Shown: piece after piece, positions 3,001 through 32,000 of the stretch
Numbering within the stretch: the first letter of the stretch is position 1
Layout of the letters: each line of letters opens with the position of its first letter
Origin: Candidatus Methanoperedens sp.
GTDB lineage: Archaea > Halobacteriota > Methanosarcinia > Methanosarcinales > Methanoperedenaceae
Assembly: GCA_041494705.1 (NCBI GenBank)
Contig: JBGQBI010000004.1
Coordinates: 150,001-182,000 of the forward strand
Direction of reading: 5' to 3'
DNA length: 32,000 nucleotides
The notes under the pieces: model-generated
What the model was told of the DNA's origin: nothing
Databases searched by the model: none
The model's input: the letters and a program-made list of their open reading frames with translations, nothing else
Program-made: the position numbers and the translations under genes

Positions 3001-3918
3001 CTACATTAGTTTAAGTATTTCGCTAATTATAAGATAGGTGTGTATTGCTATCATATCTGCATCAAATTTTTCCAAAGTTCTATCATGTTCACCTTTTTGC
3101 GTAAGTTCGACTACCTGATGCAAATAATTCTCCAAATATTTAGTTTCAACTATGAAGAATTTTCTTTGGTCTCCGCCAAGCTTCTTATCTGCAAATGCAC
3201 ATAAACGATTAATAAATTGTGGTTCTCCAACACTTAATAGTGAACCATTTTTCATTTTATATTCTTTATCACTAGCTGGAAAAACTTTATCAGCCACAAA
3301 CTTTAGAATTCGTCTACATGAATGAGCTACTTTTGTCCAGTCTGCTGGGTTGGTGCTAGATAGATTTGTATAAAGAGAATCTACTTCTTTTGAAGTATTT
3401 TCGTCCAGTTTAGCCAATTTTTCATCTACGTTATTCCTAATTTCTTCCATCAAATATTCTACAATACCACCATATTGCAATTCTCTAATTATATTATTAA
3501 GAAAGAAAAGGCAATTATCTTCTATTCCGGAAATGAGCAAGTTAATCAAAGGGGGGGTCAAAATCGCAATTGTATTATCGCCCACCATTGTTGTTGCTTC
3601 CGCATCTTCACGTACTGCCTCTAACATGCTTATTGGTATTGTTATATCCCAGAATCTAGGATTTCTTTGTAATACCCCATTATGTTTATAATGACAGTTC
3701 ACAATTCTATGCTCAGGGACTTTGGAATCCCAACTTCCATTTAGTTCGGACTTTAACCATTTTTCATCTGCGCTTTTATTTAGATTACTGGCAACTGCCA
3801 AGCATGCTCTTATCAGAGAAATTACATTCATCTTGGCATCTAATAGATTCTTTCTTGTCGTATAGGCTATATCTAAAGCTTCTTCCCTGGGCGATGAGAA
3901 TTTTCTACTTTCTACCAT
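3001..3918 (-). CDS. AbiTii-like abortive-infection domain protein (305 aa), C-terminal half unknown
   Basis: The N-terminal segment NVISLIRACLAVASNLNKSADEKWLKSELNGSWDSKVPEHR matches the AbiTii N-domain pattern I recognise (helix, then W..ELNGY....PEYR). The gene is AT-rich: line 3241-3300 counts 17/60 GC. Confidence 0.6.
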   Translation of the reverse strand: MVESRKFSSPREEALDIAYTTRKNLLDAKMNVISLIRACLAVASNLNKSADEKWLKSELNGSWDSKVPEHRIVNCHYKHNGVLQRNPRFWDITIPISMLEAVREDAEATTMVGDNTIAILTPPLINLLISGIEDNCLFFLNNIIRELQYGGIVEYLMEEIRNNVDEKLAKLDENTSKEVDSLYTNLSSTNPADWTKVAHSCRRILKFVADKVFPASDKEYKMKNGSLLSVGEPQFINRLCAFADKKLGGDQRKFFIVETKYLENYLHQVVELTQKGEHDRTLEKFDADMIAIHTYLIISEILKLM

Positions 3919-4894: not shown

Positions 4895-6358
4895 ATGCCT
4901 GAAGAAAGAAAAGATGCTGCAAGCATTGTCACTAAAGTGAATGATTATACATGGGACATACCCATGACTTACAAACCCGGCATGAGAGTGCCCGGGCGCT
5001 TATTCGTCTCCCAGAAATTACTTACGAACCTTGAGCATGACACGCTTGAGCAGACAGCCAATGTCGCAACCCTCCCCGGCATCCAGAAATATTCCATGGC
5101 AATGCCTGACGCCCATTCAGGCTATGGATTTCCTATTGGCGGAGTGGCGGCTTTTGACAGGAACACAGGCATAATCAGCCCCGGAGGCGTGGGATACGAT
5201 ATAAACTGCGGCGTGCGTATAATCAGGACGAATCTGACTGCGGATGAAGTCCGCCCAAGGATGAAAGAACTTATCGAGCTTCTTTTCCATGAAATCCCCT
5301 CAGGCGTGGGCTCAAAAAGCAAGATTCGTGCCTCGGATAGTGAGCTGACAGATGCCTTCCTGCACGGCGCAAAATGGGCTGTAGAAAGCGGATATGGCGT
5401 TCCTGAAGATATCGAGCACTGCGAAGAGAACGGTTTTATGAAGATTGCCGACCCTTCCAAAGTGAGTGAAAAAGCGCGAAACCGTGGCAAACCGCAGTTA
5501 GGGACCCTTGGCAGCGGAAATCATTTCCTTGAGGTGCAGTACGTGGATGAAGTGTACGATGAAGACGTTGCGAAGGTCTTTGGTCTTCACAAAGGACAGG
5601 TCACGGTCATGGTACATTGCGGTTCGCGCGGCGCGGGTCACCAGATTTGCGATGATTACCTGAAGATTCTTGATAAAGCCACACGTAAATACGGCATTGT
5701 CCTTCCTGACAGGCAGCTTGCATGCGCGCCTGCGGAATCGCCTGAAGGCCAGAACTATTTTAAAGCCATGGCTGCGGGAGCAAATTATGCCTGGGCGAAC
5801 AGGCAGGTCATTACCCACTGGGTCAGGGAGGCGTTTACACGCTTTTTCAGGCGCGATATGGACGACCTGGGAATGAACCTCATCTATGATGTGGCGCATA
5901 ACGTCGCCAAGCTTGAAGAGCATGTTATTGACGGAGAGAAAAAGATGGTGTATGTGCACCGAAAAGGTGCAACGCGGGCTTTCCCGCCCGGGCATCCCGA
6001 TGTGCCAGCGGTATACAGGAAAGTGGGCCAGCCTGTTCTCATCCCGGGCAGCATGGGCACGCCCTCATTTGTGCTGCACGGCACGCAGAAAGCGATGGAA
6101 CTCACTTTCGGAAGCGCATGCCACGGCTCTGGCAGGGTATCAAGCCGTGCGGCTGCAAAGCGGGAATTTTATGGAGAGACTATTCAAAAAGAATTGGCTG
6201 CTAAAGGTATCACAGTGAGAGCAACGCACCCGTCTATAATAGCTGAAGAAGCTCCGGGAGTCTATAAATCGAGCGATGAAGTAGTGGACGTGGTGCACCA
6301 GCTTGGCATTGCCCGGAAAGTCGTGAAGCTTATGCCGATGGGAGTGGCGAAGGGATAG
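4895..6358 (+). CDS. rtcB: RNA-splicing ligase RtcB
   Basis: 487 aa with [37 protein letters not shown] and a terminal MPMGVAKG. There is no intein-sized insertion. Confidence 0.95.
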
Positions 6359-6419
6359 TAAACAGTTATTATAAGGAATGACACAATATAACATAAAAAT
6401 ACAAACCCATGTGAAATTT

Positions 6420-6725
6420 ATGACTGAAAGTCTTGTTCGTGAAAGTATTGATATTCTTGCAACTTCAAGATACTTCGGCAGCAAACGAAAATTGCTTGAT
6501 GAAGCGGTCAGGACGTTACTGGAAGTGAAGCCCGCTCTGAAAACAGAAATAGCAGTAGAACTTTACAAGAAAAGTACTGTTTCAATGAGCAGGGCATGCG
6601 AGATAGCTGGTGTGTCAACTGAGGGATTTAAAGAAATACTTGCAAGCAGGGGCATTGTAAGGATTGTCAAAGCTCCACCCAGGGAAAAAATCAAAAAAGA
6701 AGTTAAATTGATATTACAAAAATAA
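6420..6725 (+). CDS. UPF0175-family antitoxin
   Basis: EIAVELYKKSTVSMSRACEIAGVSTEGFKEILASRGI matches the UPF0175 HTH pattern. Its stop is 2 nt before the PIN gene. ATG 6420 is preferred; the longest ORF starts at 6378. Confidence 0.7.
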   Translation: MTESLVRESIDILATSRYFGSKRKLLDEAVRTLLEVKPALKTEIAVELYKKSTVSMSRACEIAGVSTEGFKEILASRGIVRIVKAPPREKIKKEVKLILQK

Positions 6726-6727
6726 AG

Positions 6728-7216
6728 ATGGCATTTATTTTCGATACAGACATCCTCAGTGCATTCGCAAAAACAGACAGTTTGCCATTGTTAAAGAAAC
6801 TTTTCTCAAAACATGATGTTTATATAACCCCTGAAATTTATGAAGAACTGGAAATTCCAATAGATTATGGTTATAATTTTCCCTTGAAAATCTTTGAAGA
6901 ATTCGCGATTTTAACACCGAACGAGAAAGAACAAGAAATATACAGGTTATTCCTGAAAGCCAATCGCTGTATTGGAAGAGGTGAACTGGAAGCAATATCT
7001 ATTTGCATCAACAGAAAATACTATTTCTCATCAATGGACGAAGCTGCTATGTCGTTTGCAGAAACCAACGATGTAACCACAATAAGTCTGCATTCAATTT
7101 TGAGATCATTATGGGAGTCAGCGATTCTAACCAAAAAAGAAGTCCATGAACTTATTTTACGAATCGAACAGAAAGACAATACAAGAATAAAGGATATTCA
7201 TAAGATTCTACAGTGA
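6728..7216 (+). CDS. PIN-domain toxin (DUF3368-like partner of UPF0175)
   Basis: Acidic PIN residues occur in FDTDIL, GELEAI and SMDEAA. It is 162 aa and tightly coupled to the upstream antitoxin. Confidence 0.7.
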   Translation: MAFIFDTDILSAFAKTDSLPLLKKLFSKHDVYITPEIYEELEIPIDYGYNFPLKIFEEFAILTPNEKEQEIYRLFLKANRCIGRGELEAISICINRKYYFSSMDEAAMSFAETNDVTTISLHSILRSLWESAILTKKEVHELILRIEQKDNTRIKDIHKILQ

Positions 7217-7238
7217 AACGATAATATTAGACTTATTT

Positions 7239-7889
7239 ATGCCCTACGCAGCAAAAGACCGACAGGAATTCATCAAACGCTCAAACCTTGAGCTTGGCGC
7301 GCGAGTCCTCGATTTCGGAGGAATGCTTGGAGAGGAACTCCCATCTGCGGTTTTCGGGATTACTACAAAAAGACCGATGACAGGCGCCGTTCTCATAAAA
7401 CCCACACTATTGCCATTTAAAAATTCAGTATTCAAATCGGTTGTTTCATATCATTACTTTGACCTTATCCCATCCGACATTCTGAAGTTTGCTTTTGATG
7501 AGGCGGCGAGGGTATTGGACAAGGATTCAAGCTTTTCTTTCATGATAACCCAGTGGGCGGCGCAGAACGATGCGCAGCGCTCAAGCCTTTTTTTCAATGA
7601 ACTCCTGAAAAGCACAGGCGCTCTTTTCCAGCATGATTTCGAAGAAGTAAGCAGACTGCTCTCGGAATCAGGTTTCAGTGAAATAACAGCAGAAAGCGTA
7701 AAACGCGAAATAGTGATACCCGGGGATTTTGCAAGGTCGCACCTGTTGATGCTTGGAAATCTTGTGAAAAAAGAAAAAGAGCAGGGCGGGGAATTAATAA
7801 AAACTCTTGCAAGGCAGTATTTTAACAATGTAAAAGTCCACGGCGAAGCCATGCTGCCTGCAATTCACTTTACGGCCCGGAAACTATGA
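7239..7889 (+). CDS. Class I methyltransferase-like protein with a degenerate SAM loop
   Basis: VLDFGGMLGE stands in place of motif I. LPFKNSVFKSVVSYHYF and EAARVLDKDSSFSFM resemble Methyltransf_11 motifs. An ATGA overlap joins it to the next gene. Confidence 0.45.
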   Translation: MPYAAKDRQEFIKRSNLELGARVLDFGGMLGEELPSAVFGITTKRPMTGAVLIKPTLLPFKNSVFKSVVSYHYFDLIPSDILKFAFDEAARVLDKDSSFSFMITQWAAQNDAQRSSLFFNELLKSTGALFQHDFEEVSRLLSESGFSEITAESVKREIVIPGDFARSHLLMLGNLVKKEKEQGGELIKTLARQYFNNVKVHGEAMLPAIHFTARKL

Positions 7890-9269: not shown

Positions 9270-9548
9270 ATGGAACTTACAATCCTCAATAAGACGGAAA
9301 ATGAAATAAATATCAAAGTGACAGGGGAAACGCATACCATGCTCAGTATCTTAAAGACTGCTTTACTGGATAACAAGCATGTCGAGATTGCAACATACGA
9401 TATAAAGCACCCGACAATCAGCGAACCTGTGCTTTTCGTGAGAACAGATGGCGCAGACCCTATTGATGTAATTAAAAAAGCATCAAAGGATATTGTCAAG
9501 GAATGCGACGAATTTATTAAATTATTTACTAAGAAGACGAAGGGTTAA
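9270..9548 (+). CDS. rpoL: DNA-directed RNA polymerase subunit L (Rpo11)
   Basis: 92 aa. ENEINIKVTGETHTMLSILKTALLDNKHVEIATYDIKHPTISEPVLFVRT matches the RpoL/Rpb11 fold pattern. It follows csl4, as in the archaeal exosome superoperon. Confidence 0.88.
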   Translation: MELTILNKTENEINIKVTGETHTMLSILKTALLDNKHVEIATYDIKHPTISEPVLFVRTDGADPIDVIKKASKDIVKECDEFIKLFTKKTKG

Positions 9549-10011
9549 TTAAAACTCCATACTCCTCATCGATAAGATCATCCACCATTATTCCGTGCTC
9601 AAGCGCAACGAGAATGGCGCTGACCTCTATCAGCACCTGTTTTCCGAGTTCTTCCTGTTTTTTATTTATTAACGCTATTACTTTGCGCTTCTCTATTCCG
9701 GTTTTGAGTATGATGCGGTCGATAATCCTGTCAAATATGGTTTTTTTCTCAAAAATCCCGGGTTCGGGCCTGAATCCGGAAGGGATTTCAACCCCGGATA
9801 TATCAAAAGAAGGGCGGACCAGTTCCCCTTCTCTTTTTAAAAGACCTGATTTTTCTGCATCCTTCAAGACATTTTTCGCCTGTTCCGGATTGAACCACTT
9901 CAAATCAATAGAAAGGGCAAGCACGAATTCGCTATCTTTCAACGCGTCTTTTCCCTTTCTTAAAAAAGGCATTGAAACCGTATAGGTAAGGTCAGATGAA
10001 CCCACTGCCAA
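9529..10011 (-). CDS. Conserved archaeal protein (DUF2240-like)
   Basis: 160-aa ORF with backbone GC, convergent with rpoL with a 20-nt tail overlap. The family assignment is from memory only. Confidence 0.5.
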   Translation of the reverse strand: MAVGSSDLTYTVSMPFLRKGKDALKDSEFVLALSIDLKWFNPEQAKNVLKDAEKSGLLKREGELVRPSFDISGVEIPSGFRPEPGIFEKKTIFDRIIDRIILKTGIEKRKVIALINKKQEELGKQVLIEVSAILVALEHGIMVDDLIDEEYGVLINPSSS

Positions 10012-10032
10012 TCACTCCTTTAGACGGCGTCA

Positions 10033-10539
10033 TCACACATTTGGCGCATTTTTTACTATTTCTTCAACAATTGTATCTGCTATCCTTTCACTTTCGGTCC
10101 TGCCGAGACCATCGATATTGTGAACCTTCAGGGTCAGTACGTTATTTTCAAGGTCTGTCCTGACAAGATACGAATCACCCTTGAAGGGGATGCGGTCGAA
10201 CTTATCATCGAGAAAAGAATACTGGAGGGTCACTTTGAAATCAATTATCCCTTCAGTTTTTACATCTTTAAGCACGGAATCAACTGTGCTGTTGTTGAGA
10301 GGATGGAAATCAACGCTCTTATCCGTGATTTCGATGTTTATACTCCTTTTTGCTTTTATTGGGCGGCCTTTCCGGTCCGGGCTGTCAGTTATGAATTGCC
10401 CGGATTGTCCGTCCATTCCTGCAATTGTTTTGACAATATAGGGCAGGTTTTCCTTGAAATTATATTTTCTTACAAATTCAGGGTCTGTTGGGAACTGGTG
10501 ATATGTGCGTCTCATATTTATCTTGTAATCGTCAGGCAT
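10033..10539 (-). CDS. Hypothetical protein (168 aa)
   Basis: The longest ORF (to 10722) overlaps the upstream nuclease gene by 148 nt. The ATG at 10539 (MPDDYKINMRR) removes that overlap. I recognise no motif. Confidence 0.5.
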   Translation of the reverse strand: MPDDYKINMRRTYHQFPTDPEFVRKYNFKENLPYIVKTIAGMDGQSGQFITDSPDRKGRPIKAKRSINIEITDKSVDFHPLNNSTVDSVLKDVKTEGIIDFKVTLQYSFLDDKFDRIPFKGDSYLVRTDLENNVLTLKVHNIDGLGRTESERIADTIVEEIVKNAPNV

Positions 10540-10574
10540 TCTTAAAAGCTTATTGCTAGAATTATGGAACTTCC

Positions 10575-11777
10575 CTATTCCCGTTCCTTTAAATTCGAAA
10601 TATAAATCCGGCAGGACTCTTCCATTCTCTGGAACTCCCGGATTTTTCCAATAAGTTCGGGGCTCCATCCGATTAAAGCCTTTGAAAGAGCATGGATATT
10701 CAGGTCTGAGACCTCTTCCCATTTCCCTGCTTCTTTGATAATTGCATCAAGCTGCTCTCTTTCTTTTTCCTCTTTTGCAGGAAAATGTGGTTTCTCCTCA
10801 ATCTTTACACGCAATTTCTTATCATTACCTCGGATGATTTCCACTCCTTCCCGTTTTGCATAGGCGACAATCGCTTCCTTCAGCAATTCAAGCTCTGCAT
10901 CTATATTATCAACCAGCTTTTTTTTCTCCATTGATTTCTCAACATACCGGTTCACAAGCAAAACTCCCGGGTCTTCCAGGTATTTATTAAGAGGCATCTG
11001 GCCGGTTTTGACGAGATGCATTCGCTTCGGGCACAGGGACTGGTAATCGCACCAGTCGCAGAGGCCGCTAACTTGCGCCTCGAAATCATTTTCCTCTTCA
11101 GCCCGTTCGATAGTCTCTATCAGCTTTACAATCCCCGACTTGAGTTCTAAAAGATCATGCGGCTGCCGTTTTGATTTTATCTCCCTGTCAAATACAAGAT
11201 AATGCCATACAAGATCGACTTCGTTTACATCCCCGAACATTTCCTGGACGCCAATCTGGTAAAGCGCAAGCTGCCTGTCCGAGTCAAAATGCGACTGCTG
11301 CGGCAGGTACTGTGAGGTCTTGTAGTCATGAATTTCATAAACCCCGTCGCGGCTGGATGAGAGCCTGTCGATAAATCCCCTGAGTTTATATCCTTCGATG
11401 TCGATTGCTATCATCTGCTCAAGTCCAAGGGTCTTCCCGTCATTGAAAGGCTGGTATCGTGCGTAATACTCACGGATGCATCTGGCGCCTGTGTCTTTAT
11501 AATTCCGTGGAGTGTAGCCTTCTTTTATAATCCTGATACCCTCGGAATAGTTCTTGAGCCACACGTCATCATAAAAAGAAAGAAGCTCTTCCGGCGTATC
11601 TGATTTTGAGAGGCGAAGGTCTTTATAGAGTTTCTCAAGCGTTTCATGGACTCTCGAACCCATGAAGGCTTCAATTGTTTCACTCTCATCGATTTTTATT
11701 TTATCCACATATCTCAGGCGGTATTGGAGAGGACATGTCTCGAACGCGGATAAACGGGAATGGGAGTAGATTGTCAT
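10575..11777 (-). CDS. PD-(D/E)XK nuclease with a Cas4/AddB-type Fe-S cysteine cluster and a C-terminal helical extension
   Basis: HSRLSAFETCPLQYRLRY carries the N-terminal Cys. IHDYKTS is the D/ExK motif and QLALYQ the QxxxY motif. CDWCDYQSLCP supplies the three C-terminal Cys. A ~150-aa charged tail follows. Confidence 0.8.
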   Translation of the reverse strand: MTIYSHSRLSAFETCPLQYRLRYVDKIKIDESETIEAFMGSRVHETLEKLYKDLRLSKSDTPEELLSFYDDVWLKNYSEGIRIIKEGYTPRNYKDTGARCIREYYARYQPFNDGKTLGLEQMIAIDIEGYKLRGFIDRLSSSRDGVYEIHDYKTSQYLPQQSHFDSDRQLALYQIGVQEMFGDVNEVDLVWHYLVFDREIKSKRQPHDLLELKSGIVKLIETIERAEEENDFEAQVSGLCDWCDYQSLCPKRMHLVKTGQMPLNKYLEDPGVLLVNRYVEKSMEKKKLVDNIDAELELLKEAIVAYAKREGVEIIRGNDKKLRVKIEEKPHFPAKEEKEREQLDAIIKEAGKWEEVSDLNIHALSKALIGWSPELIGKIREFQRMEESCRIYISNLKERE

Positions 11778-14384: not shown

Positions 14385-15824
14385 TCAAGCTTCTTTTTTT
14401 ATTATATATCTAGCTAATGAAAGCACCTTCTCAGCATCTTCTTTCGTGGCTCTGATTGTTCCATGAAGGATTTCATTTCTCTTTTGTTTCATTTTCATAA
14501 GAATCTCATAGTCGGCATTTAACAATATCTCTTGAAGATTGATTGATTTGATAATTTTGTCAATGTTCCACTTACTTATTTCTTTTTTGAATCCACCAGA
14601 AATGCCTTTCTCTTTTAAAAAATCTTCCCACTTTCCAGTAAGGTACTTTTCAATTATTACCCAGCTCATAAAAAATGATTGAGTATATTCCGATTCAGAG
14701 AAGTGTGTATAAGATTCGAGGAAGAATGGAATATAAAAACGAAGCTTAGGGTTATTCCAATATAGTTCGGCGTCTTTGAGCGTTTCACCTAATTCCTTAT
14801 GGGTGAGTTTTGTTCTCCTTCTAAAAAATGGCTCCGCTGACTTTTGTTCATACTGAATTGAGAATCTTGGAAGCATAGGTATAGACGAACCTCCAAATTT
14901 TTTTGAGTTAATGTCGTATTGGAAGTGTCCGAGTTCATGTTCTCGTATCACATACGACAAAGTTCCCCTTAGAAAAAAGGTGGCAACCAAGACATTGAGG
15001 ATTTCCAGAGCTACTTTGTTTTCTATTTCTTCTACTCCTACAAATCCATCATAGGTTGCGATAACATTTTGGCCATTAAATTTACCTTCAAAGACAACCG
15101 TACCGAATTTAATTATGTGTATTTCCTCGAATAATTCCTCTGAAAAGGGGACTTTTGGCGCCTTTCCAATATACACAGGTGGAAATAGAAATGTTCCATG
15201 CCACTTATATATGGGTTCGGAATGTTCTTGAATTTTCTGTGGTTCAGTCTTAGCTAATATTTCGACTGTCTTTTGAGCTTGCTCGTTTTGACAAGCATTT
15301 TTAGCATTATGAATTATCGAGACGACCATACTTGCTGGGTCAGCCTTAGTAATGTCTCCATAACAAGACCATATAGCAGAATTTTTCAAAAAATATTGTT
15401 TGTGAGTAGGGATGTCTAAAAAGATGGGATTGAATACATTTCTTTGAATTTCTCTAAGAATGCTTCTTAGATCCCTATCGAGTAAAGTTCTAACAATTGG
15501 TTCGCCTTCGAGAAAAAAAAGAACATATTGTTCATCTGTATCTATTGGAATATCCCAAACAGGGTCAGAAATGATTTTTTCAAATAGCTCGAAGGCTTCG
15601 TATGGCTTGATAGGTCCATACGCCCACACTTTTTCATCCTTTATATGGGGAAGATGGAGAATAAAAGTCTTGGTCAGCGGAGGATATTCAAATGTAATAG
15701 ACAGTATTTGGCACGGTTCCGTCAAATCATCTAAGTTGATGTTTTTCCTTTCGCCTTCAGATAGTTCTTTATATTTCTCACGGAACTCTTGAATGAGATT
15801 CTTAAACCAGTCTTCACGGTTCAT
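14385..15824 (-). CDS. 479-aa protein with a C-terminal HEPN (Rx4H) domain; N-terminal two-thirds unknown; internal HELGH
   Basis: KQKRNEILHG (R449...H454, nt 14463-14480) lies within a helical C-terminal ~140 aa (FFMSWVIIEKYL ... AEKVLSLARYIIK). HELGH is at aa 296-300 (nt 14925-14939). The gene is AT-rich: line 14581-14640 counts 20/60 GC. Confidence 0.7.
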   Translation of the reverse strand: MNREDWFKNLIQEFREKYKELSEGERKNINLDDLTEPCQILSITFEYPPLTKTFILHLPHIKDEKVWAYGPIKPYEAFELFEKIISDPVWDIPIDTDEQYVLFFLEGEPIVRTLLDRDLRSILREIQRNVFNPIFLDIPTHKQYFLKNSAIWSCYGDITKADPASMVVSIIHNAKNACQNEQAQKTVEILAKTEPQKIQEHSEPIYKWHGTFLFPPVYIGKAPKVPFSEELFEEIHIIKFGTVVFEGKFNGQNVIATYDGFVGVEEIENKVALEILNVLVATFFLRGTLSYVIREHELGHFQYDINSKKFGGSSIPMLPRFSIQYEQKSAEPFFRRRTKLTHKELGETLKDAELYWNNPKLRFYIPFFLESYTHFSESEYTQSFFMSWVIIEKYLTGKWEDFLKEKGISGGFKKEISKWNIDKIIKSINLQEILLNADYEILMKMKQKRNEILHGTIRATKEDAEKVLSLARYIIKKEA

Positions 15825-16336: not shown

Positions 16337-17434
16337 ATGAAAGCGGTACTCGGGCTTGAGGACGGAACATTTGTAAAAGGAGAAGGTCTGGGAGTGGAAG
16401 GTATTGTCCGGGGCGAGCTTGTTTTTACAACGCAGTACACAGGTTACGAGGAAGCCCTGACAGACCCATCGTATAAGGGACAGATACTGATGTTCACGTA
16501 TCCGCTCATCGGCAACTACGGCATAAGCGGCGAAACCTTCCAATCCGATAGGATGCAGGCAGAAGGACTGGTTGTAAGGGAAGCCTGCGACCATCCATCC
16601 CATCACAAATCAAAGCGCTCAATTTTTGAGTTCCTGAAGGATGAGGGCAAATCAGGCATCATGGGAATTGATACCCGTATGCTCACGATAAAAACAAGAG
16701 AGCACGGCACCATGAAAGCCGCTATAATAGTCGGGGACGATAACGGCGAGGAAGCTGTTAGGCTTGCAAGGGAGCAGCCCGATATAGGAGGTCTTGACCT
16801 GATTAGCAGGGTCACATGCAAAGAGCCATACCGGGTAAAAGGGCAGGAAGACGGGGGCAACATCGTGCTCATGGATTTCGGTGCAAAGAGAAACATCGTT
16901 AAAAGCCTGAACAACCGGGGAATCAATGTCACTGTTGTTCCTGCAACAACGAAGTTAAAAGATATCATGAATTACGAGCCGGATGCCCTGCTTCTCTCCA
17001 ATGGCCCTGGAGACCCGCAGCAGGCAATAAACGGCATCTCGGTCGTGAAAGAGCTTGCTGGACAATTGCCCATTTTCGGCATCTGTCTCGGGCACCAGAT
17101 TATCTCGCTGGCGCTCGGGGGAGAGACTTACAAGATGAAGTTCGGACACCGCGGAGCCAACCAGCCTGTGAAGGACAAAAAGAGGGGTATCGTGTACATC
17201 ACATCGCAGAACCACGGTTATGCGGTGGATGATAGCAGCATGGATGAAAAAGAGGTATCTATCACTCAATTAAACGCCAATGACGGCACTGTTGAAGGGC
17301 TTGAGCATAAAAAGCTTGAGATAATATCGGTGCAGTACCATCCTGAAGCGCACCCGGGACCTCTTGATACCGAGAAGATTTTCTTTGACAGGGTTGCTGA
17401 AACGGTGAGAAGGATGAAAGTGCTGGTTAAATAA
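16337..17434 (+). CDS. carA: Carbamoyl-phosphate synthase small (glutaminase) subunit
   Basis: Starts MKAVLGLEDGTFVKGEG. The GATase triad context is present: PIFGICLGHQ (Cys nucleophile) and VQYHPEA. Confidence 0.93.
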   Translation: MKAVLGLEDGTFVKGEGLGVEGIVRGELVFTTQYTGYEEALTDPSYKGQILMFTYPLIGNYGISGETFQSDRMQAEGLVVREACDHPSHHKSKRSIFEFLKDEGKSGIMGIDTRMLTIKTREHGTMKAAIIVGDDNGEEAVRLAREQPDIGGLDLISRVTCKEPYRVKGQEDGGNIVLMDFGAKRNIVKSLNNRGINVTVVPATTKLKDIMNYEPDALLLSNGPGDPQQAINGISVVKELAGQLPIFGICLGHQIISLALGGETYKMKFGHRGANQPVKDKKRGIVYITSQNHGYAVDDSSMDEKEVSITQLNANDGTVEGLEHKKLEIISVQYHPEAHPGPLDTEKIFFDRVAETVRRMKVLVK

Positions 17435-17658
17435 AGCCTGTTTCTACTGCTTTGAGTTGTTCAGGTCGGTCAGGGATGGGAAGTGATTTGAAAAATACAT
17501 TTTCACGCAGAATTGCTCGTCTAGTGAGAAAACATTATAAAGGCAAAAACGCTAACAAGTCCGGGTGTAGTTAAGTACGGGGTTAGGGTAAATTGCAATT
17601 AAACCCTGCGCATTGGCAGGGTGCTGACTTCGTTTCCTTAAAACAGATGAATTATTGG

Positions 17659-18639
17659 TCATTTCAAAGGTTCTTTATATCTCGTTCTGAAAAATTCTTC
17701 TTCATCCACTAGGTCCTTGAGGATATTTTTCTCGCATACGTCAAGAAAATCTTTAAAACAATCTTTGTCGCTAATTACAATTTTATTATTTTTAACTTCA
17801 AACTTTAGATAAGGAACCATTTTTTTTATTTTCGATATTCTATTGATATCAATCTTATCAAAACCACCCTGGAGTGAAAGGCGAGCTATTCTCTTTAAGA
17901 ATGCAGGTTTATCAAGTATTTGATCACGGAGATCTTCTTGTATTTCAAAATTTTTAAATGATGTAAGCTTTTCAAATACCTTCTTAGATTCATTTATATA
18001 AAGATCTAATAAAGAGAAAATCGATTCGAAGCCGTTCCTATTCAAAATATACATAATTTCATGAATATTATCTAATTTGTAATAAACGCAATCAATAAAA
18101 TCATCAAATTTACATACATCACCATATACACGATTGAATATGCCGTCCTTAAAACTAAATAAAGTATTTTCTGAAGAGATGACACTCCCCTTGGTGTATT
18201 TACGGAAATATATGACTTTATTATTTATACTTTTGAATTCAACAGCATAACTATGAAATCCTTCTATTGATCCTCCTTCGAAGGTTTTAATTTGATCTAG
18301 GTTTGTATGTTGTTCCATCCGCATGTCAATATATCTAAATGTTGGAATTAGAAGAAGATTTTCAATAACAGCTATGTGTTCGTGTTCGGGCAACAAGTCA
18401 CTCGCAAAGAAATCTTTAAACTTCAAATCTTGAATTTTAATAGTATTTAGCTGTGATACTATAGTTTTGGTAAATTTGATCTTTACATCGCCTGCAATGC
18501 TAACAGAAAATACCCTATTCATTTTTTCTGGCATACGGCTATTGCTTTTTTTGATAAAGTACATCTCTATCTGAACATCTTTTTCTTGAATATGTGCCAA
18601 CATCAGGTCAATTATAGATTTTGCATCAATCATCTTCAT
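17659..18639 (-). CDS. 326-aa soluble protein, KwaB/DUF4868-like by architecture
   Basis: Its start overlaps the upstream membrane-protein gene by 14 nt. I found no catalytic motif. The central segment FRKYTKGSVISS...CKFDDFIDCVYYKLDNIHEIMYILNRNGFESIF resembles my recollection of DUF4868. Line 18001-18060 counts 17/60 GC. Confidence 0.5.
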   Translation of the reverse strand: MKMIDAKSIIDLMLAHIQEKDVQIEMYFIKKSNSRMPEKMNRVFSVSIAGDVKIKFTKTIVSQLNTIKIQDLKFKDFFASDLLPEHEHIAVIENLLLIPTFRYIDMRMEQHTNLDQIKTFEGGSIEGFHSYAVEFKSINNKVIYFRKYTKGSVISSENTLFSFKDGIFNRVYGDVCKFDDFIDCVYYKLDNIHEIMYILNRNGFESIFSLLDLYINESKKVFEKLTSFKNFEIQEDLRDQILDKPAFLKRIARLSLQGGFDKIDINRISKIKKMVPYLKFEVKNNKIVISDKDCFKDFLDVCEKNILKDLVDEEEFFRTRYKEPLK

Positions 18640-19183
18640 TACACTCCATTATAATATTTTCATGTATAGAGACCGCTTTAATTGAAACCTCAAGTAATAG
18701 TTTATTTTGTTTTGTAAGAAGCATGTATTCGTTTTGAAATGGATCTTCTATTTTGAAGAGATTGTAACCGAATAAATTTATCATCGGGTTCACATATATT
18801 AAATTTGATTTAAGATACATAAAACAGACTACCATAAGTAATAGAACCAATAAAAATATATCTTTTATATTAGAATAATTAATGTTTAAAAATGGAATAA
18901 TGTATGTGACCAAATATTCTAAATAAATATGATTTAAATTTTCCTTGTGTTTAATCGTTATGTGTTTGTAGCCGTCATCTTTCTTAGATTCTCGCAATAA
19001 ATAGTATAAAATAAAATTTGAAAATATTATCACAATAAAAATTAATGAAATTCCAAAAGAAAACGGATTCCATTCGGTTATGACTTCATAATTATCTAAT
19101 AAAATTCTCAAACCTAATAGTGCAAATAACGGGGAATATGCACTTAAAAAGAGAGTGAACCTAACCCATTTCTTTAATGCCAT
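18626..19183 (-). CDS. 185-aa four-TM membrane protein, KwaA-like by architecture
   Basis: The hydrophobic segments are FTLFLSAYSPLFALLGLRILL, FGISLIFIVIIFSNFILYYLL, IYLEYLVTYIIPFL and IFLLVLLLMVVCFMYL. A ~60-aa soluble tail follows. Confidence 0.5.
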   Translation of the reverse strand: MALKKWVRFTLFLSAYSPLFALLGLRILLDNYEVITEWNPFSFGISLIFIVIIFSNFILYYLLRESKKDDGYKHITIKHKENLNHIYLEYLVTYIIPFLNINYSNIKDIFLLVLLLMVVCFMYLKSNLIYVNPMINLFGYNLFKIEDPFQNEYMLLTKQNKLLLEVSIKAVSIHENIIMECNEDD

Positions 19184-19214
19184 ATTATCAACTTATAAAC
19201 TGCATGGATATTTT

Positions 19215-19712
19215 TCACATCTTCCACCTGTCATCCACAGGAAAACACTCTTTAATCCACATAAGCACCTTATTCTCATAGATTATCCTGTATTCCCTTG
19301 AAAGCACGGGAACGTTCCCAAAAAAATCCTGCCGCACAATTTCCATTTTCAGTATATTCCGCCTTGTCTCAAGCTTATGCTCCCGCAGAATCCTTCCTAT
19401 CGGGATATCCGCCCGCATGAGGTCGTCCCTCACTGCCTGCGGCATTCTTTTTACGGGCGCCAGGGATTTTGCCAGAACGTAAATAGTCCCTCCGGCATCC
19501 AATGTAACAAGACGGCTGTTGACCTCGTCCCCGACCTCGATATCAAGAAGCTTTGCGATATCAGGCGTTGCTTTTATCACGCTTTGTTCAAGCGTTTTGA
19601 CTACTACCGTTTTCCCTGTGAGCACCTCAAGAAGCTGCGTGACCGAGCCGTCAGTGCCTGCGCAAATGCGGAGGCATGCGGGAACATCAGGTCTTTTAAG
19701 CGCATCCCACAA
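19215..19712 (-). CDS. Chorismate pyruvate-lyase-like (DUF98/UbiC-fold) protein
   Basis: LRICAGTDGSVTQLLEVLTGKTVVVKTLEQ ... IPIGRILREHKLETRR fits the DUF98/chorismate-lyase pattern. Confidence 0.7.
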   Translation of the reverse strand: MWDALKRPDVPACLRICAGTDGSVTQLLEVLTGKTVVVKTLEQSVIKATPDIAKLLDIEVGDEVNSRLVTLDAGGTIYVLAKSLAPVKRMPQAVRDDLMRADIPIGRILREHKLETRRNILKMEIVRQDFFGNVPVLSREYRIIYENKVLMWIKECFPVDDRWKM

Positions 19713-22316: not shown

Positions 22317-22763
22317 TTATAATACGTCAACCGGAGACACTATATCCACATAATTATTTAACCCACGGCTGGTGAGCATCCTATCGTCTGTGGTAACCAG
22401 CGGAATTTTGAGTATTTTAGCACAAATCACATGCATCAGGTCGCTTTCGGATATTCTATCGTCGGCTTTCCTGAGTTCTGAATAAACCATCATATCATTA
22501 TTTGATGGTACAAAATTCTCAAGCTTCGTAGAAATGAGCATATCCACAACAGCATGGAGGATTTCCGGTTTTATCATTTGCCTTATATTATCAGCATATA
22601 GAATCGAATTGATCATTTCTCCACTTACAAACGGTGAAATATATCCAATAAATACCTCGTTGTGGATACGACTGATAAAACTCTTACATGCCCTTGTATT
22701 TTCGTCCTTAATAACTGCTCCGAGAAAAATACAGCTATCGATAAAAAATCTATTTTTTGGCAT
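22317..22763 (-). CDS. vapC: PIN-domain ribonuclease toxin (VapC-like)
   Basis: Acidic PIN residues occur in FFIDSCIF, SGEMINS and VTTDDRML. 148 aa. Its start overlaps the stop of a small upstream ORF. Confidence 0.75.
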   Translation of the reverse strand: MPKNRFFIDSCIFLGAVIKDENTRACKSFISRIHNEVFIGYISPFVSGEMINSILYADNIRQMIKPEILHAVVDMLISTKLENFVPSNNDMMVYSELRKADDRISESDLMHVICAKILKIPLVTTDDRMLTSRGLNNYVDIVSPVDVL

Positions 22764-29314: not shown

Positions 29315-30190
29315 TTATAATTCTTCAAAGATAATGTCTCGTAGCTGAATTTTTATTTTAATCCTATTTACCTTATTATTTGACCGAATGAGAGAAAAAT
29401 AACCCTTATCAATATTATTCAACGTATCAATCAATTTTTGTTTTTGATCCATATCGAATATTTTATTATCAAAGATTTTCCTCAACAAAAATAAAGCTCT
29501 ATCTTTATTAATAGAACCATCTTCTTTTAATATATCAACATAAATCCCATGTGTCTTCCCAGATGCAACTTTGAATATATTACCGGTTTTTTTCGGAATT
29601 TCGTCTAATCTTCTTAAATTTGAGAGAATTGAATCTTCACCAACAACTTTTGAATCCCATATTTTATCCAAATCACTGACATCTTTGGGATAATGCTTTT
29701 TTAATAGTTCAACAGCGAAATCTGCAGAATGAGCAAACTCGGATTTATTTGATTCATCGACATAAAGTGATAAATCTGGTGAAAATGCATATAATCCAAG
29801 GACTGTGAATAGAATCACTTTATCTTTTGGCCTCAATGATTCATATTTTGTTTTCAAATTTTTTTCAAATAAAAGTGAATTGAGATCATTGAGATAACTA
29901 TCAAACTGATCAGAGAATTCAAGATTATATTCTAAAATAACGAGACCTTTGTATGTTAAGAGATAATATCCCTCTTCTTCGATCAAATCTAAAATTCCTT
30001 TATTTACAAGATGATCTAATTCAGACAACGAATATGACCATTCATCCCTTTTAAAACTGGTTGAGGAGAAAAATTCCTGGAGATTTTTTACAGGCTTTTT
30101 GATTAAATCAACAGAATATTTTCCTTTAGACTTAGAAATTTTTGTAATTAGAAACTCTTTGTATTCTGGTTTTAAGTAATATTGGGGCAA
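29315..30190 (-). CDS. 291-aa protein of unknown function, possible N-terminal winged helix; partner of the upstream ATPase
   Basis: SELDHLVNKGILDLIEEEGYYLLTYKGLVILE is wHTH-like and the rest is unrecognised. It starts 12 nt after the ATPase stop and is very AT-rich. Confidence 0.55.
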   Translation of the reverse strand: MPQYYLKPEYKEFLITKISKSKGKYSVDLIKKPVKNLQEFFSSTSFKRDEWSYSLSELDHLVNKGILDLIEEEGYYLLTYKGLVILEYNLEFSDQFDSYLNDLNSLLFEKNLKTKYESLRPKDKVILFTVLGLYAFSPDLSLYVDESNKSEFAHSADFAVELLKKHYPKDVSDLDKIWDSKVVGEDSILSNLRRLDEIPKKTGNIFKVASGKTHGIYVDILKEDGSINKDRALFLLRKIFDNKIFDMDQKQKLIDTLNNIDKGYFSLIRSNNKVNRIKIKIQLRDIIFEEL

Positions 30191-30202
30191 ATCATCACCT
30201 AC

Positions 30203-32000
30203 TTACACAGGGACAGGGTCCCAGGTAATCTCTGACACTTTGCTGTCTGCTATGGTAATTAGTGCAAATATCGTTTCACCTTTTTTAATCTGGCTCTTTA
30301 TCTCATCAACCAATATTCCAATGTTTTTTTCATCCATATGCCCGATTTCATCTACCAATATGATCTTCTTTTTCCCACCAAAATTCTGCTTTATACGGGA
30401 TAAAATTGAATTTAGGGCGGTATGACCAGTTCCCATCTGAACAAATTTGATCGGTTTTCTATTTTTTACAATATATTGTCTGTTTACAAGATCGACTTTT
30501 TCGACTACCCAAGATTTTTTCTCAAAGTATACATTTTGTAGAATTTCAGCAAAATATTCGGATAAAGCATCAAACAATTCTTTTGCATGCTTATAATCAA
30601 TCCCCATATCTGTCTTTCTGAAATCAACCGGTTCGAGAGCCTTTTTCCATTTGTTTACTTTTGATATCAAATCAAAACATTTAGCAGATTCTTCCTCTAG
30701 CCAATCTTCATCAAATGCAGGTAGGGTCTCTAATTCACCTAATTGTTCAATAAGAGCAACCAATGTCTTTTCTTTCTGTCCCAAGCTTGCAATCTCTATT
30801 TCTAAATCTTCAAATTCTTTTTTTGTCCTTTTATATTGTTCACGTTGTCCGGGATTATCTAGAATTTCATCGATCTCATTTTCGGACAATGATTCAACAA
30901 TCTCCTCATGTTTCGAAGATTCCTTCTCCAAAAGGTCTAATTTGCTTTCCAATTTCTTAATTTCCTTTTCAATCTGATCATATTCATACATTTGTTCTTC
31001 ATCGACATCAGGAATTTTATCACGCTTTACTTTGAGATCAGAAAGATATACTGAAAGTTTATTTAATTCGCTGCTAACTTCAGCCAAATCTCGTTTTTTC
31101 AAGATTTTAGGTTCTAATTGTTTGTTAAATTCATCTAACTCTTTATAAAATGAAAAAATATTTTTTTCATCGGTCCCGGGAACATTCATTTCAAGACTTA
31201 AATATCCCCTTAAAACTTCCATAATTTTATTGATTAATTCAGATTGTTTCTCTTCTTGTTTGAATTTCTCATTAAGAGGGTCATTTTTAAGATCCAAAAT
31301 GATTTTTTTTACATCATCAGTCCATTCTTCAATATTTTTTATTGCTATTTCTTTAGGACTATATAATTCATTAAGTTTTTTTTCAATTTTTTTAATAAAT
31401 GTGAGGTTTTCTTCTGATAAAATTTCACGATATTTTTTTATTAAAGATAGAGATTTTTTAGTGTTACTATTAACTATATTAAATTCAGTGACTTGTTGTT
31501 TGAACTTGGGGGTTCCACCGCCTAAACCTTTCTGCTTTAAATTTGTTCTTTTTTCCTTTAGACTAACTAATTCATTTTCATTTTGTTCATATAAATCCTC
31601 TATTTCGTAATATGAAATTACTTTATCAGCTATCTCTAATTTTGAGACTTCCGCTTCCACTCTATTTTTCAATTCTTTTTTATTTTCTAGTTCTCTCTTA
31701 GTTTCTTCCAATATACCCTTATTTTTTTGAATCTTTTTATCTTTCTCCTTAAAATCTATTATTTGAGTCCTTTTGTTACCCAAATCTTGGTCATATCTTG
31801 TGAGATATCTTTCATAATCTATGAGATTCTCTCTAATGAGACGAACCGATGATTGGAGTTTGACCAATGGATCATCCGGAACATCATAAAGTACTTGAAT
31901 ATTCTCATTAAAATATTCAGAACCTACGGGTTCACCATTTAATTTTGTATTCAGTGAACCTTTATCATATTGAGAATAGATTTCCATGAGACCATCCTTG
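30203..32000 (-). CDS. Coiled-coil ABC/SMC-Rad50-like ATPase (C-terminal head half visible); possibly continues beyond the window
   Basis: About 450 aa of heptad-rich K/E/L sequence precede FVQMGTGHTALNSIL (a degenerate signature-like motif) and KKIILVDEIGHMD (Walker B plus D-loop, nt 30332-30364). There is no Walker A in the window. The first ATG is at 31987, but the frame stays open (KDGL-M) to position 32000. Confidence 0.65.
   Translation of the reverse strand, partial: KDGLMEIYSQYDKGSLNTKLNGEPVGSEYFNENIQVLYDVPDDPLVKLQSSVRLIRENLIDYERYLTRYDQDLGNKRTQIIDFKEKDKKIQKNKGILEETKRELENKKELKNRVEAEVSKLEIADKVISYYEIEDLYEQNENELVSLKEKRTNLKQKGLGGGTPKFKQQVTEFNIVNSNTKKSLSLIKKYREILSEENLTFIKKIEKKLNELYSPKEIAIKNIEEWTDDVKKIILDLKNDPLNEKFKQEEKQSELINKIMEVLRGYLSLEMNVPGTDEKNIFSFYKELDEFNKQLEPKILKKRDLAEVSSELNKLSVYLSDLKVKRDKIPDVDEEQMYEYDQIEKEIKKLESKLDLLEKESSKHEEIVESLSENEIDEILDNPGQREQYKRTKKEFEDLEIEIASLGQKEKTLVALIEQLGELETLPAFDEDWLEEESAKCFDLISKVNKWKKALEPVDFRKTDMGIDYKHAKELFDALSEYFAEILQNVYFEKKSWVVEKVDLVNRQYIVKNRKPIKFVQMGTGHTALNSILSRIKQNFGGKKKIILVDEIGHMDEKNIGILVDEIKSQIKKGETIFALITIADSKVSEITWDPVPV

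Follow-up and report, generated by a model that had tools for sequence, protein, structure and literature searches.

In a 32,000-nt stretch of contig JBGQBI010000004.1 (assembly GCA_041494705.1, positions 150,001 to 182,000 of the forward strand; the whole stretch is called the window below), two overlapping minus-strand open reading frames (ORFs) encode a 185-aa membrane protein and a 326-aa soluble protein that we identify as KwaA and KwaB, the two components of the Kiwa defence system. An earlier note, made from the sequence alone, had described this pair, its 14-nt overlap and a gap of 31 nt to a DUF98 gene upstream. Coordinates and sequence confirm the pair and the gap (19184–19214), and the upstream gene, which lies on the same strand directly before kwaA, belongs to PF01947, the former DUF98. 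On the other side, the pair faces the convergent gene carA. The window carA is 98% identical to carA of metagenome-assembled genomes (MAGs) of Candidatus Methanoperedens, the next 38 best carA loci are of the Methanoperedens or Methanoperedenaceae type, and the host is a Candidatus Methanoperedens archaeon of the anaerobic methanotrophic group ANME-2d. The contig (JGI 3300053059) is 2.07 Mb long. Methanoperedens is an environmentally important anaerobic methane oxidiser with unusual extrachromosomal elements. The loci and contigs compared with the window carry L-numbers as labels (such as L004).

The product of the first gene matches 15 KwaA models of PADLOC, the best of which (PDLC00213, 7e-26) aligns residues 3–179 with positions 1–190 of a 197-position profile, and its precomputed Pfam assignment is PF28043 (KwaA). 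In a phmmer search, residues 48–146 also match the solved Escherichia coli KwaA chains (9mrg, 9mrr, 9mrx and 9o0i; 6.4e-9). The earlier note had counted four hydrophobic helices in this protein. A Kyte-Doolittle scan reveals three strongly hydrophobic helices, at residues ~11–29, 45–63 and 106–124, while the segment at ~86–104 is moderately hydrophobic (~0.9 on the same scale, calculated by hand) and aligns with the third transmembrane helix of the solved E. coli KwaA 9mrg. The four predicted transmembrane helices are thus supported by hydropathy together with homology, not by hydropathy alone. The loop at 63–88 is rich in lysine and arginine, which fits a cytoplasmic intracellular loop 1. We also considered the PADLOC candidate family PDC-M39A for the membrane protein and rejected it, as its match is weak (1.2e-5), ~20 orders of magnitude under the KwaA matches.

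The second protein matches four PADLOC KwaB models, the best of them over its full length (PDLC00223, 1.2e-20), and Pfam PF16162 (KwaB/DUF4868) over residues 127–308 with 46.7 bits against a gathering score of 26.3. As the earlier note had described it, the protein appears soluble and non-catalytic: it contains no hydrophobic segment (maximum KD19, the Kyte-Doolittle value, 1.01), and searches with the PADLOC and Pfam models gave no catalytic-domain match. Solved structures were reached only with a deep alignment. A single-sequence phmmer search of the PDB and an eight-sequence profile (alignment A1) matched no solved structure, the word-index search repeated with the profile returned no further homologues, and the AlphaFold2 model built from A1 was unusable, with a predicted local distance difference test (pLDDT) value of 53. 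An exhaustive HMMER search returned 528 cluster representatives, and from this search we built alignment A2, 84 sequences centred on the window KwaB. The 84-sequence profile matches the solved KwaB chains (9mrx_K, 9mtn, 9nyu and 9o0i_H) at 4e-22, with residues 42–322 aligned to residues 30–313, and the AlphaFold2 model from this alignment has a pLDDT of 93.3 and a predicted template-modelling (TM) score of 0.89. When this model was compared with the PDB by Foldseek, the six best matches were all KwaB (E-values of 3e-12 to 3e-10, probability 1.00, TM-scores of 0.60–0.68; 3e-12 for 9nyu_A, 2e-11 for 9mrx_D and ~2e-10 for the 9mtn chains), and no non-KwaB fold came under an E-value of 0.1. Because the sequence profiles match for both proteins and the fold also matches for KwaB, the Kiwa call is supported for both components, and the archaeal Kiwa proposed in the earlier note has come through the checks suggested there, namely the PADLOC KwaA and KwaB models, the DUF4868 profile and similarity to the solved structures.

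At the level of single residues, the window KwaB retains the most conserved positions of the family, F145, D183 and E205, together with K147 and D179. Among the six positions that contact DNA in E. coli KwaB, four have an identical or basic residue in the window protein (D179 for D169, K177 for R167, K249 for R233 and K147 for N134), although this mapping is approximate because the two proteins align at ~15% identity. A lysine is present at position 147 in 71 of the 84 family members.

The two genes are arranged as an operon, on the same strand and with kwaA first. The longest ORFs overlap by 14 nt on the minus strand (18626–18639), within AATGAAGATGATTGA. The KwaB of all relatives begins at the equivalent of Met3 of the window protein, which is invariant in alignment A1, and the true kwaB start is therefore probably at 18633. 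With this start the overlap is 8 nt (18626–18633, ATGATTGA), as it is in L004, L006, L008 and L089; the 14-nt overlap reported before thus holds for the longest ORFs but not for the conserved start. Upstream of the kwaA ATG, blastn boundaries and junction alignments show that different cassette contexts have only 13 nt in common, which probably form the ribosome-binding region. Since only these 13 nt are shared, the cassette seems to lack a promoter of its own and to depend on the recipient operon; with so little leader brought along, kwaAB would probably be transcribed by read-through from the upstream DUF5611 and PF01947 genes on the same strand. At the other end, 38 nt past the kwaB stop, a hairpin (CCCTGC-CAATGC-GCAGGG) followed by TTTAATT is found at 17604–17621 on the minus strand. 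It falls within the ~75-nt 3' segment that the window shares with L008 and L089 and may be a terminator, though among the relatives the conservation of its second arm is poor.

The pair differs sharply from its surroundings in base composition. The GC content is 0.25 in kwaA and 0.30 in kwaB, and the GC content at third codon positions (GC3) of the pair is 0.26–0.28, compared with 0.50 and 0.55–0.57 for the flanking carA and PF01947 genes. No segment of equal length anywhere in the 32 kb is lower in GC than the 1525-nt span of kwaAB (0.282 versus a median of 0.435). The GC contrast drawn in the earlier note is right for the islet, with G+C at 17 of 60 positions in 18001–18060 and ~28% overall, but the background is ~48–50% (carA 0.50, PF01947 gene 0.50, proA lines with a mean of 48% and a maximum of 62%) and not 57%.

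We mapped the window genes onto 80 carA loci, 12 of which retain carA beside the PF01947 gene. The junction between the two genes is empty in 4 of these 12 syntenic genomes, with gaps of 6 nt (L014), 9 nt (L020), 36 nt (L016) and 89 nt (L022). The earlier note had proposed to look for such empty sites after carA in related genomes. In the other eight genomes the junction is filled with other DNA of 433–3244 nt, and Kiwa is found there in none of the 12. Homology to the host genomes ends just past the carA stop (~17435–17450), a stop that is followed by a short conserved stub, AGCCTGCTTCYACTGC. On the right side, the first position that is again homologous to the host genomes is exactly 19197 for L009, L010 and L012 and 19198 for L061, whereas the match to other cassettes with Kiwa stops at 19196. 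The low GC (0.28) and GC3 of the pair relative to its flanks, along with the empty sites, are evidence that the pair was acquired horizontally. As to the mode of insertion, the window contains no tRNA genes, the only direct or inverted repeats around the islet are short matches at chance level, and no integrase or transposase gene adjoins the pair.

In Methanoperedens, the junction of the convergent carA and PF01947 genes is a hotspot that has repeatedly received insertions, and its cargo varies among genomes. L021 has the PADLOC candidate PDC-S01 (AAA_14-DUF4143, 8e-72), L011, L015 and L041 have toxin-antitoxin pairs of the RHH/PIN type, L012 has a metabolic trio, and some genomes have genes of no assigned function. 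In L009, from a sister Methanoperedens genome, the junction contains a gene for an AAA+ protein of the Cdc6 type that carries a ThsB-like TIR domain as a fusion, plus one for a DJ-1/PfpI protein. The fusion protein (589 aa, 5577–7346 on the minus strand of L009) has a complete Orc1/Cdc6 module, consisting of AAA+, lid and winged-helix domains, followed by the C-terminal TIR domain (ThsB-like, 1e-14); this architecture is unusual, and we regard the protein as a candidate defence protein. The junction can serve as a ready marker for accessory and defence genes in Methanoperedens genomes.

Features of the Kiwa locus in the window (positions count from the first letter of the window)
Feature	Position	Strand	Description	Basis
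carA	16337..17434	+	left (convergent) flank of the hotspot	Pfam CPSase_sm_chain + GATase
whole insertion relative to empty sites	17435..19196		1,762 nt, from the carA stop to the conserved 18 nt after the PF01947-gene stop	host-homology limits, empty junctions
mobile Kiwa cassette	17586..19196	-		blastn boundaries and junction alignments with L004, L006, L008 and L089
kwaB	17659..18639	-	326-aa soluble protein (324 aa from the conserved Met at 18633); N-terminal Rossmann-like domain and C-terminal DUF4868 DNA-binding domain, both as predicted	PADLOC, Pfam, profile, AlphaFold2/Foldseek
kwaA	18626..19183	-	185-aa integral membrane protein; four predicted transmembrane helices, cytoplasmic loop (~63–88), C-terminal tail (~135–185)	PADLOC, phmmer, Pfam, hydropathy
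conserved leader of kwaA	19184..19196	-	13 nt; ATAAGTTGATAAT in the window, ATAGGTGGATACT in L004	
PF01947 gene	19215..19712	-	Rv2949c-like, former DUF98; right flank of the hotspot	Pfam PF01947, 1.6e-25

Close relatives of the cassette are found in four other contexts, where its GC content is 0.26–0.28 in contigs of 0.34–0.41. At the DNA level, L004, L006 and L008 are 85–87% and L089 is 78% identical to the window (from position 17586 or 17633 to 19196), and the homology reaches ~25–75 nt downstream of the kwaB stop. The KwaA proteins of L004/L006, L008 and L089, all of 185 aa, are 78–92% identical to that of the window and the KwaB proteins 61–74%; KwaB is 323–327 aa long in L004–L007, L008 and L089. 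L003 represents the cassette of the window itself in a different assembly. In the L004 contig, the flanking DUF2193, aquaporin and flavin-reductase proteins fall into 90%-identity clusters named Ca. Methanoperedens or ANME-2, placing L004 by these sequence clusters in a Methanoperedens genome. As the earlier note had proposed to check, the two genes occur together elsewhere, and in at least one archaeal genome: both kwaA and kwaB are present in every contig long enough (L004, L006, L008 and L089, and L093–L095), and in the truncated contigs L005 and L007 the C-terminus of KwaA lies directly upstream of KwaB.

The relatives of the cassette are embedded in defence genes, being inside or beside Type I restriction-modification (R-M) systems, HEPN/MNT pairs, AbiEii and TIR genes. 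In L004–L007 a Type I R-M operon has the Kiwa pair between its hsdM and hsdS genes, and the stop of kwaB overlaps the start of hsdS. In the more distant relatives L090 and probably L092, Kiwa is likewise followed by hsdS. L008 has the cassette beside Type I R-M and AbiEii genes, and L089 beside an AAA_15/21 ATPase gene. Around the L004 cassette (9451–10972), and also in L005, L006, L007, L090 and L092, the same R-M operon holds HEPN/MNT pairs (HepT-like/NTP_transf_2) and a Schlafen/AlbA_2 ATPase gene. We ruled out that the Kiwa of the window is itself part of a Type I R-M locus, as no hsd gene occurs in the window.

Purifying selection acts on both genes: against three independent relatives, dN/dS (the ratio of nonsynonymous to synonymous substitution rates) is 0.19–0.29 for kwaA and 0.19–0.47 for kwaB. 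We noticed that the two genes differ in their nearest relative: kwaA is closest to that of L008 (dS of 0.18, versus 0.30 to L004), and kwaB to that of L004 (dS of 0.27, versus 0.60 to L008). This discordance suggests recombination between kwaA and kwaB, and it fits the partial incongruence of KwaA and KwaB trees reported for bacteria (PMC11785009). With regard to carriers, the viral contigs gave no relatives, the phage collection gave no match, and the plasmid collection gave only a 24%-identical KwaB-like gene of Vibrio; these searches therefore give no indication that the clade is carried by known viruses or plasmids. A scan of genome contigs with KwaB peptide patterns returned no relative either.

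We read the locus as a complete two-gene Kiwa defence system, kwaA-kwaB, that was horizontally acquired as a compact, very AT-rich 1.6-kb cassette and is lodged in an accessory and defence-gene hotspot, where carA and the PF01947 gene of Candidatus Methanoperedens converge with their 3' ends, and we give this reading a probability of roughly 90%. It brings together the homology of both proteins to Kiwa in sequence and of KwaB in fold, the operon architecture, the co-conservation of the two genes, their purifying selection and their horizontal acquisition.

How such a system might work is suggested by its E. coli counterpart, in which KwaA forms tetramers with four transmembrane helices per protomer, and the intracellular loop and C-terminus of KwaA form a β-barrel that docks KwaB dimers, resulting in a fence-like membrane supercomplex (PMC11785009). 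There, the membrane is disturbed by phage attachment or DNA ejection and by conjugation, KwaB binds the incoming DNA via DUF4868 without cutting it, and replication forks stall, which in turn affects late transcription; KwaB is inhibited by the DNA mimic Gam, and conjugation is also reduced by Kiwa (PMC11785009). We propose the same scheme here, supported by two observations: the most conserved positions of the KwaB family are retained, and four of the six DNA-contact positions are identical or basic. In this scheme, the four transmembrane helices would mediate the assembly of KwaA tetramers in the cytoplasmic membrane, and the cytoplasmic loop and C-terminal tail of KwaA would build a small β-barrel that docks KwaB dimers and keeps them at the membrane. 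Through KwaA the system would sense when an attaching or DNA-injecting virus, or some other incoming element, disturbs the membrane; KwaB would then bind the entering DNA non-enzymatically via DUF4868 and block its replication and the expression of late genes. The complex, what triggers it, the binding of DNA and a protective effect against viruses in the archaeal cell are all predictions carried over by analogy; the defence-gene surroundings and the purifying selection bear on the last of them.

Several points weigh against this interpretation. The window KwaB is only ~15% identical to E. coli KwaB over aligned columns, and KwaA scores 81.6 bits with the NCBIfam KwaA model NF041622, under its strict equivalog cut-off of 100, and is therefore a divergent member of the family. 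The residues of the E. coli KwaA-KwaB interface are not conserved (S for R35, I for N42, T for P100, L for Q103 and I for Y157); such divergence is expected if KwaA and KwaB co-evolve, and the complex is predicted here by analogy. Conservation also fails at two of the six DNA-contact positions, with S155 in place of R142 and N202 in place of K187 (with R201 adjacent), again by an approximate mapping. The archaeal envelope, with its surface layer (S-layer) and ether lipids and without peptidoglycan, is unlike that of E. coli, for which the membrane-disturbance trigger was described, and archaea, to our knowledge, do not have RecBCD, which works together with Kiwa in E. coli. For kwaAB we identified no promoter. 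In the literature searched we found no experimental work on archaeal Kiwa, and no papers that name Kiwa together with Methanoperedens.

The low KwaB identity, the interface and DNA-contact residues that are not conserved, the unlike envelope and the missing RecBCD are also what could be expected of a Kiwa homologue that works differently in this host, responding to another trigger (Borgs or other extrachromosomal elements, S-layer or pilus events, envelope stress) or acting with other partners. The nesting of the cassette between hsdM and hsdS in several relatives could hint at functional coupling, and E. coli Kiwa also lowers conjugation (PMC11785009). Against such a change of function stand the full-length profile and fold matches to the Kiwa components and the retention of F145, D183, E205, K147 and D179. 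The pair moreover stands alone in the window; since no R-M genes are near it, it does not depend on R-M. We thus see only a small chance that the function has shifted. We judge it very improbable that the pair is just a passenger, silent or in decay, as a cassette that came without a promoter to a tolerant intergenic site and is unexpressed or non-functional there. The 13 nt of its own upstream DNA, the fact that no archaeal promoter was identified, a codon usage far from that of the host (GC3 of 0.26–0.28 versus ~0.55) and its presence at the carA/PF01947 site in this genome only, versus 12 syntenic relatives, would all agree with a passenger. However, neither ORF is broken or shortened relative to the family, dN/dS stays well under 1 against three independent relatives, and the same leader is used inside R-M operons elsewhere. 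Read-through is also plausible because the pair is on the same strand, 31 nt behind the DUF5611 and PF01947 genes.

The earlier note had kept in reserve an undescribed membrane-tethered two-gene system that would resemble Kiwa in architecture only. Its sole footing had been the early null result with single-sequence phmmer and the eight-sequence KwaB profile, of which nothing remains after testing; with the profile, Pfam, PADLOC and structural matches to Kiwa all significant, we no longer entertain it. The reading as an acquired Kiwa system could also be taken further, to a Kiwa lineage that is specific to Methanosarcinales, is passed around among Methanoperedens genomes as a 1.6-kb cassette without a promoter, plugs into host operons (Type I R-M operons, the carA/PF01947 hotspot) and, in an S-layer and ether-lipid envelope, senses when archaeal viruses or large extrachromosomal elements (Borgs, jumbo elements) enter. 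We put this picture forward as a speculation that is unlikely to hold. If it were true, either the sensing of membrane perturbation by KwaA would be independent of the envelope type, or the trigger would be unlike the bacterial one. More generally, if archaeal Kiwa works, the sensing mechanism of E. coli must operate without peptidoglycan and outer membrane and with ether lipids, and such activity would constrain models of what KwaA senses.

In addition to the Kiwa cassette, the window contains other low-GC genes. A 479-aa ORF between proA and carA (14385–15824, minus strand) has a GC content of 0.36 and a GC3 of 0.33; L009 and L012 lack it and have a gap of ~930 nt in the corresponding interval. 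Pfam recognises no domain in it above threshold, but weak matches of the HEPN type (DUF4145, RiboL-PSP-HEPN, Csx1/CARF-HEPN) are seen at its C-terminus, which also contains an RNEILH (Rx4H) motif, and its only ~12 homologues are scattered in Methanoperedens, Spirochaetes and Omnitrophica MAGs. This ORF may be an uncharacterised HEPN defence or toxin gene and form a second islet on the other side of carA. Beside thrS, in a further low-GC patch (0.31; GC3 of 0.26), a 305-aa protein of the AbiTii family is encoded at 3001–3918 on the minus strand (PF18864, 32.3 bits versus a cut-off of 27.6; PADLOC AbiTii, 6e-10), which by these matches is a further defence gene of the abortive-infection type. 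A low-GC patch between gatB and the form-III RuBisCO gene holds a PIN-domain protein (22317–22763, minus strand; PF01850, 2.9e-8) preceded by an overlapping 47-aa ORF (5747–5890 in L001), and the two make a VapBC-like toxin-antitoxin pair inserted at this place. At the most AT-rich end of the window (GC of 0.25–0.33), adjacent 291-aa and 594-aa ORFs at 29315–31987 on the minus strand have no Pfam or PADLOC match and may be another horizontally acquired islet. A 400-aa PD-(D/E)XK nuclease (PF12705) at 10575–11777 on the minus strand has Cas4-like PADLOC matches (1e-13), with no CRISPR-Cas neighbours visible in the window.

We finally compared the window pair with known Kiwa systems. The E. coli system (O55:H7 RM12579 and ECOR systems) is known from structures of KwaA and the KwaAB complex (9mrg, 9mrr, 9mrx), of KwaB (9mtn, 9nyu) and from 9o0i, which has chains matching both. 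As in the window, kwaA comes before kwaB, KwaA (~190 aa) has four transmembrane helices and a cytoplasmic C-terminal domain, KwaB (~315–325 aa) combines a Rossmann-like domain with DUF4868 and has no enzymatic motif, and the system is horizontally mobile and resides in defence islands. In contrast, the proteins of the two systems are far apart, with roughly 25–30% identity over the aligned core of KwaA in addition to the low identity of KwaB, the KwaA-KwaB interface residues are not shared, and the window system resides in an archaeal host with an S-layer and ether lipids and without RecBCD, on an extremely AT-rich cassette. The Methanoperedens and environmental cassettes of L004–L007, L008 and L089 are much closer, sharing the 185-aa KwaA, the 13-nt leader and a GC content about as low, but they are inserted at other sites.

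The nearest named relatives of the window KwaB are proteins of Methanosarcina sp. WWM596 (WP_048158951.1) and M. siciliae (WP_148705143.1), both named "Kiwa anti-phage protein KwaB-like domain-containing protein" by NCBI; their cluster (P0013) matches the profile at 1e-63 and is ~32% identical to the window KwaB. This Methanosarcina-type Kiwa, which includes the environmental relatives L093–L095, is also archaeal (Methanosarcinales) and has kwaA directly upstream of kwaB, with a stop/start overlap of 1 nt, in a defence context beside a TIR gene and an SbcCD-like pair. It differs from the window pair in its larger proteins (223 aa for KwaA and 347 aa for KwaB), and it forms a separate subclade at another genomic location. 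A 2024 survey counts Kiwa with the systems whose frequency per Mbp is higher in archaea than in bacteria (bioRxiv 10.1101/2024.10.26.620412). The statement in the earlier note that Kiwa has been characterised only in bacteria agrees with the literature as far as experiments are concerned, but it overstated the novelty, since archaeal Kiwa had already been detected computationally in that survey and in the NCBI names of the Methanosarcina proteins. The window pair is a further archaeal copy of a known system and not a new kind of system, and it leaves the knowledge of Kiwa itself unchanged; what it adds to the known systems is a well-documented archaeal Kiwa with profile and fold support, an empty-site comparison, cassette boundaries and an insertion hotspot.

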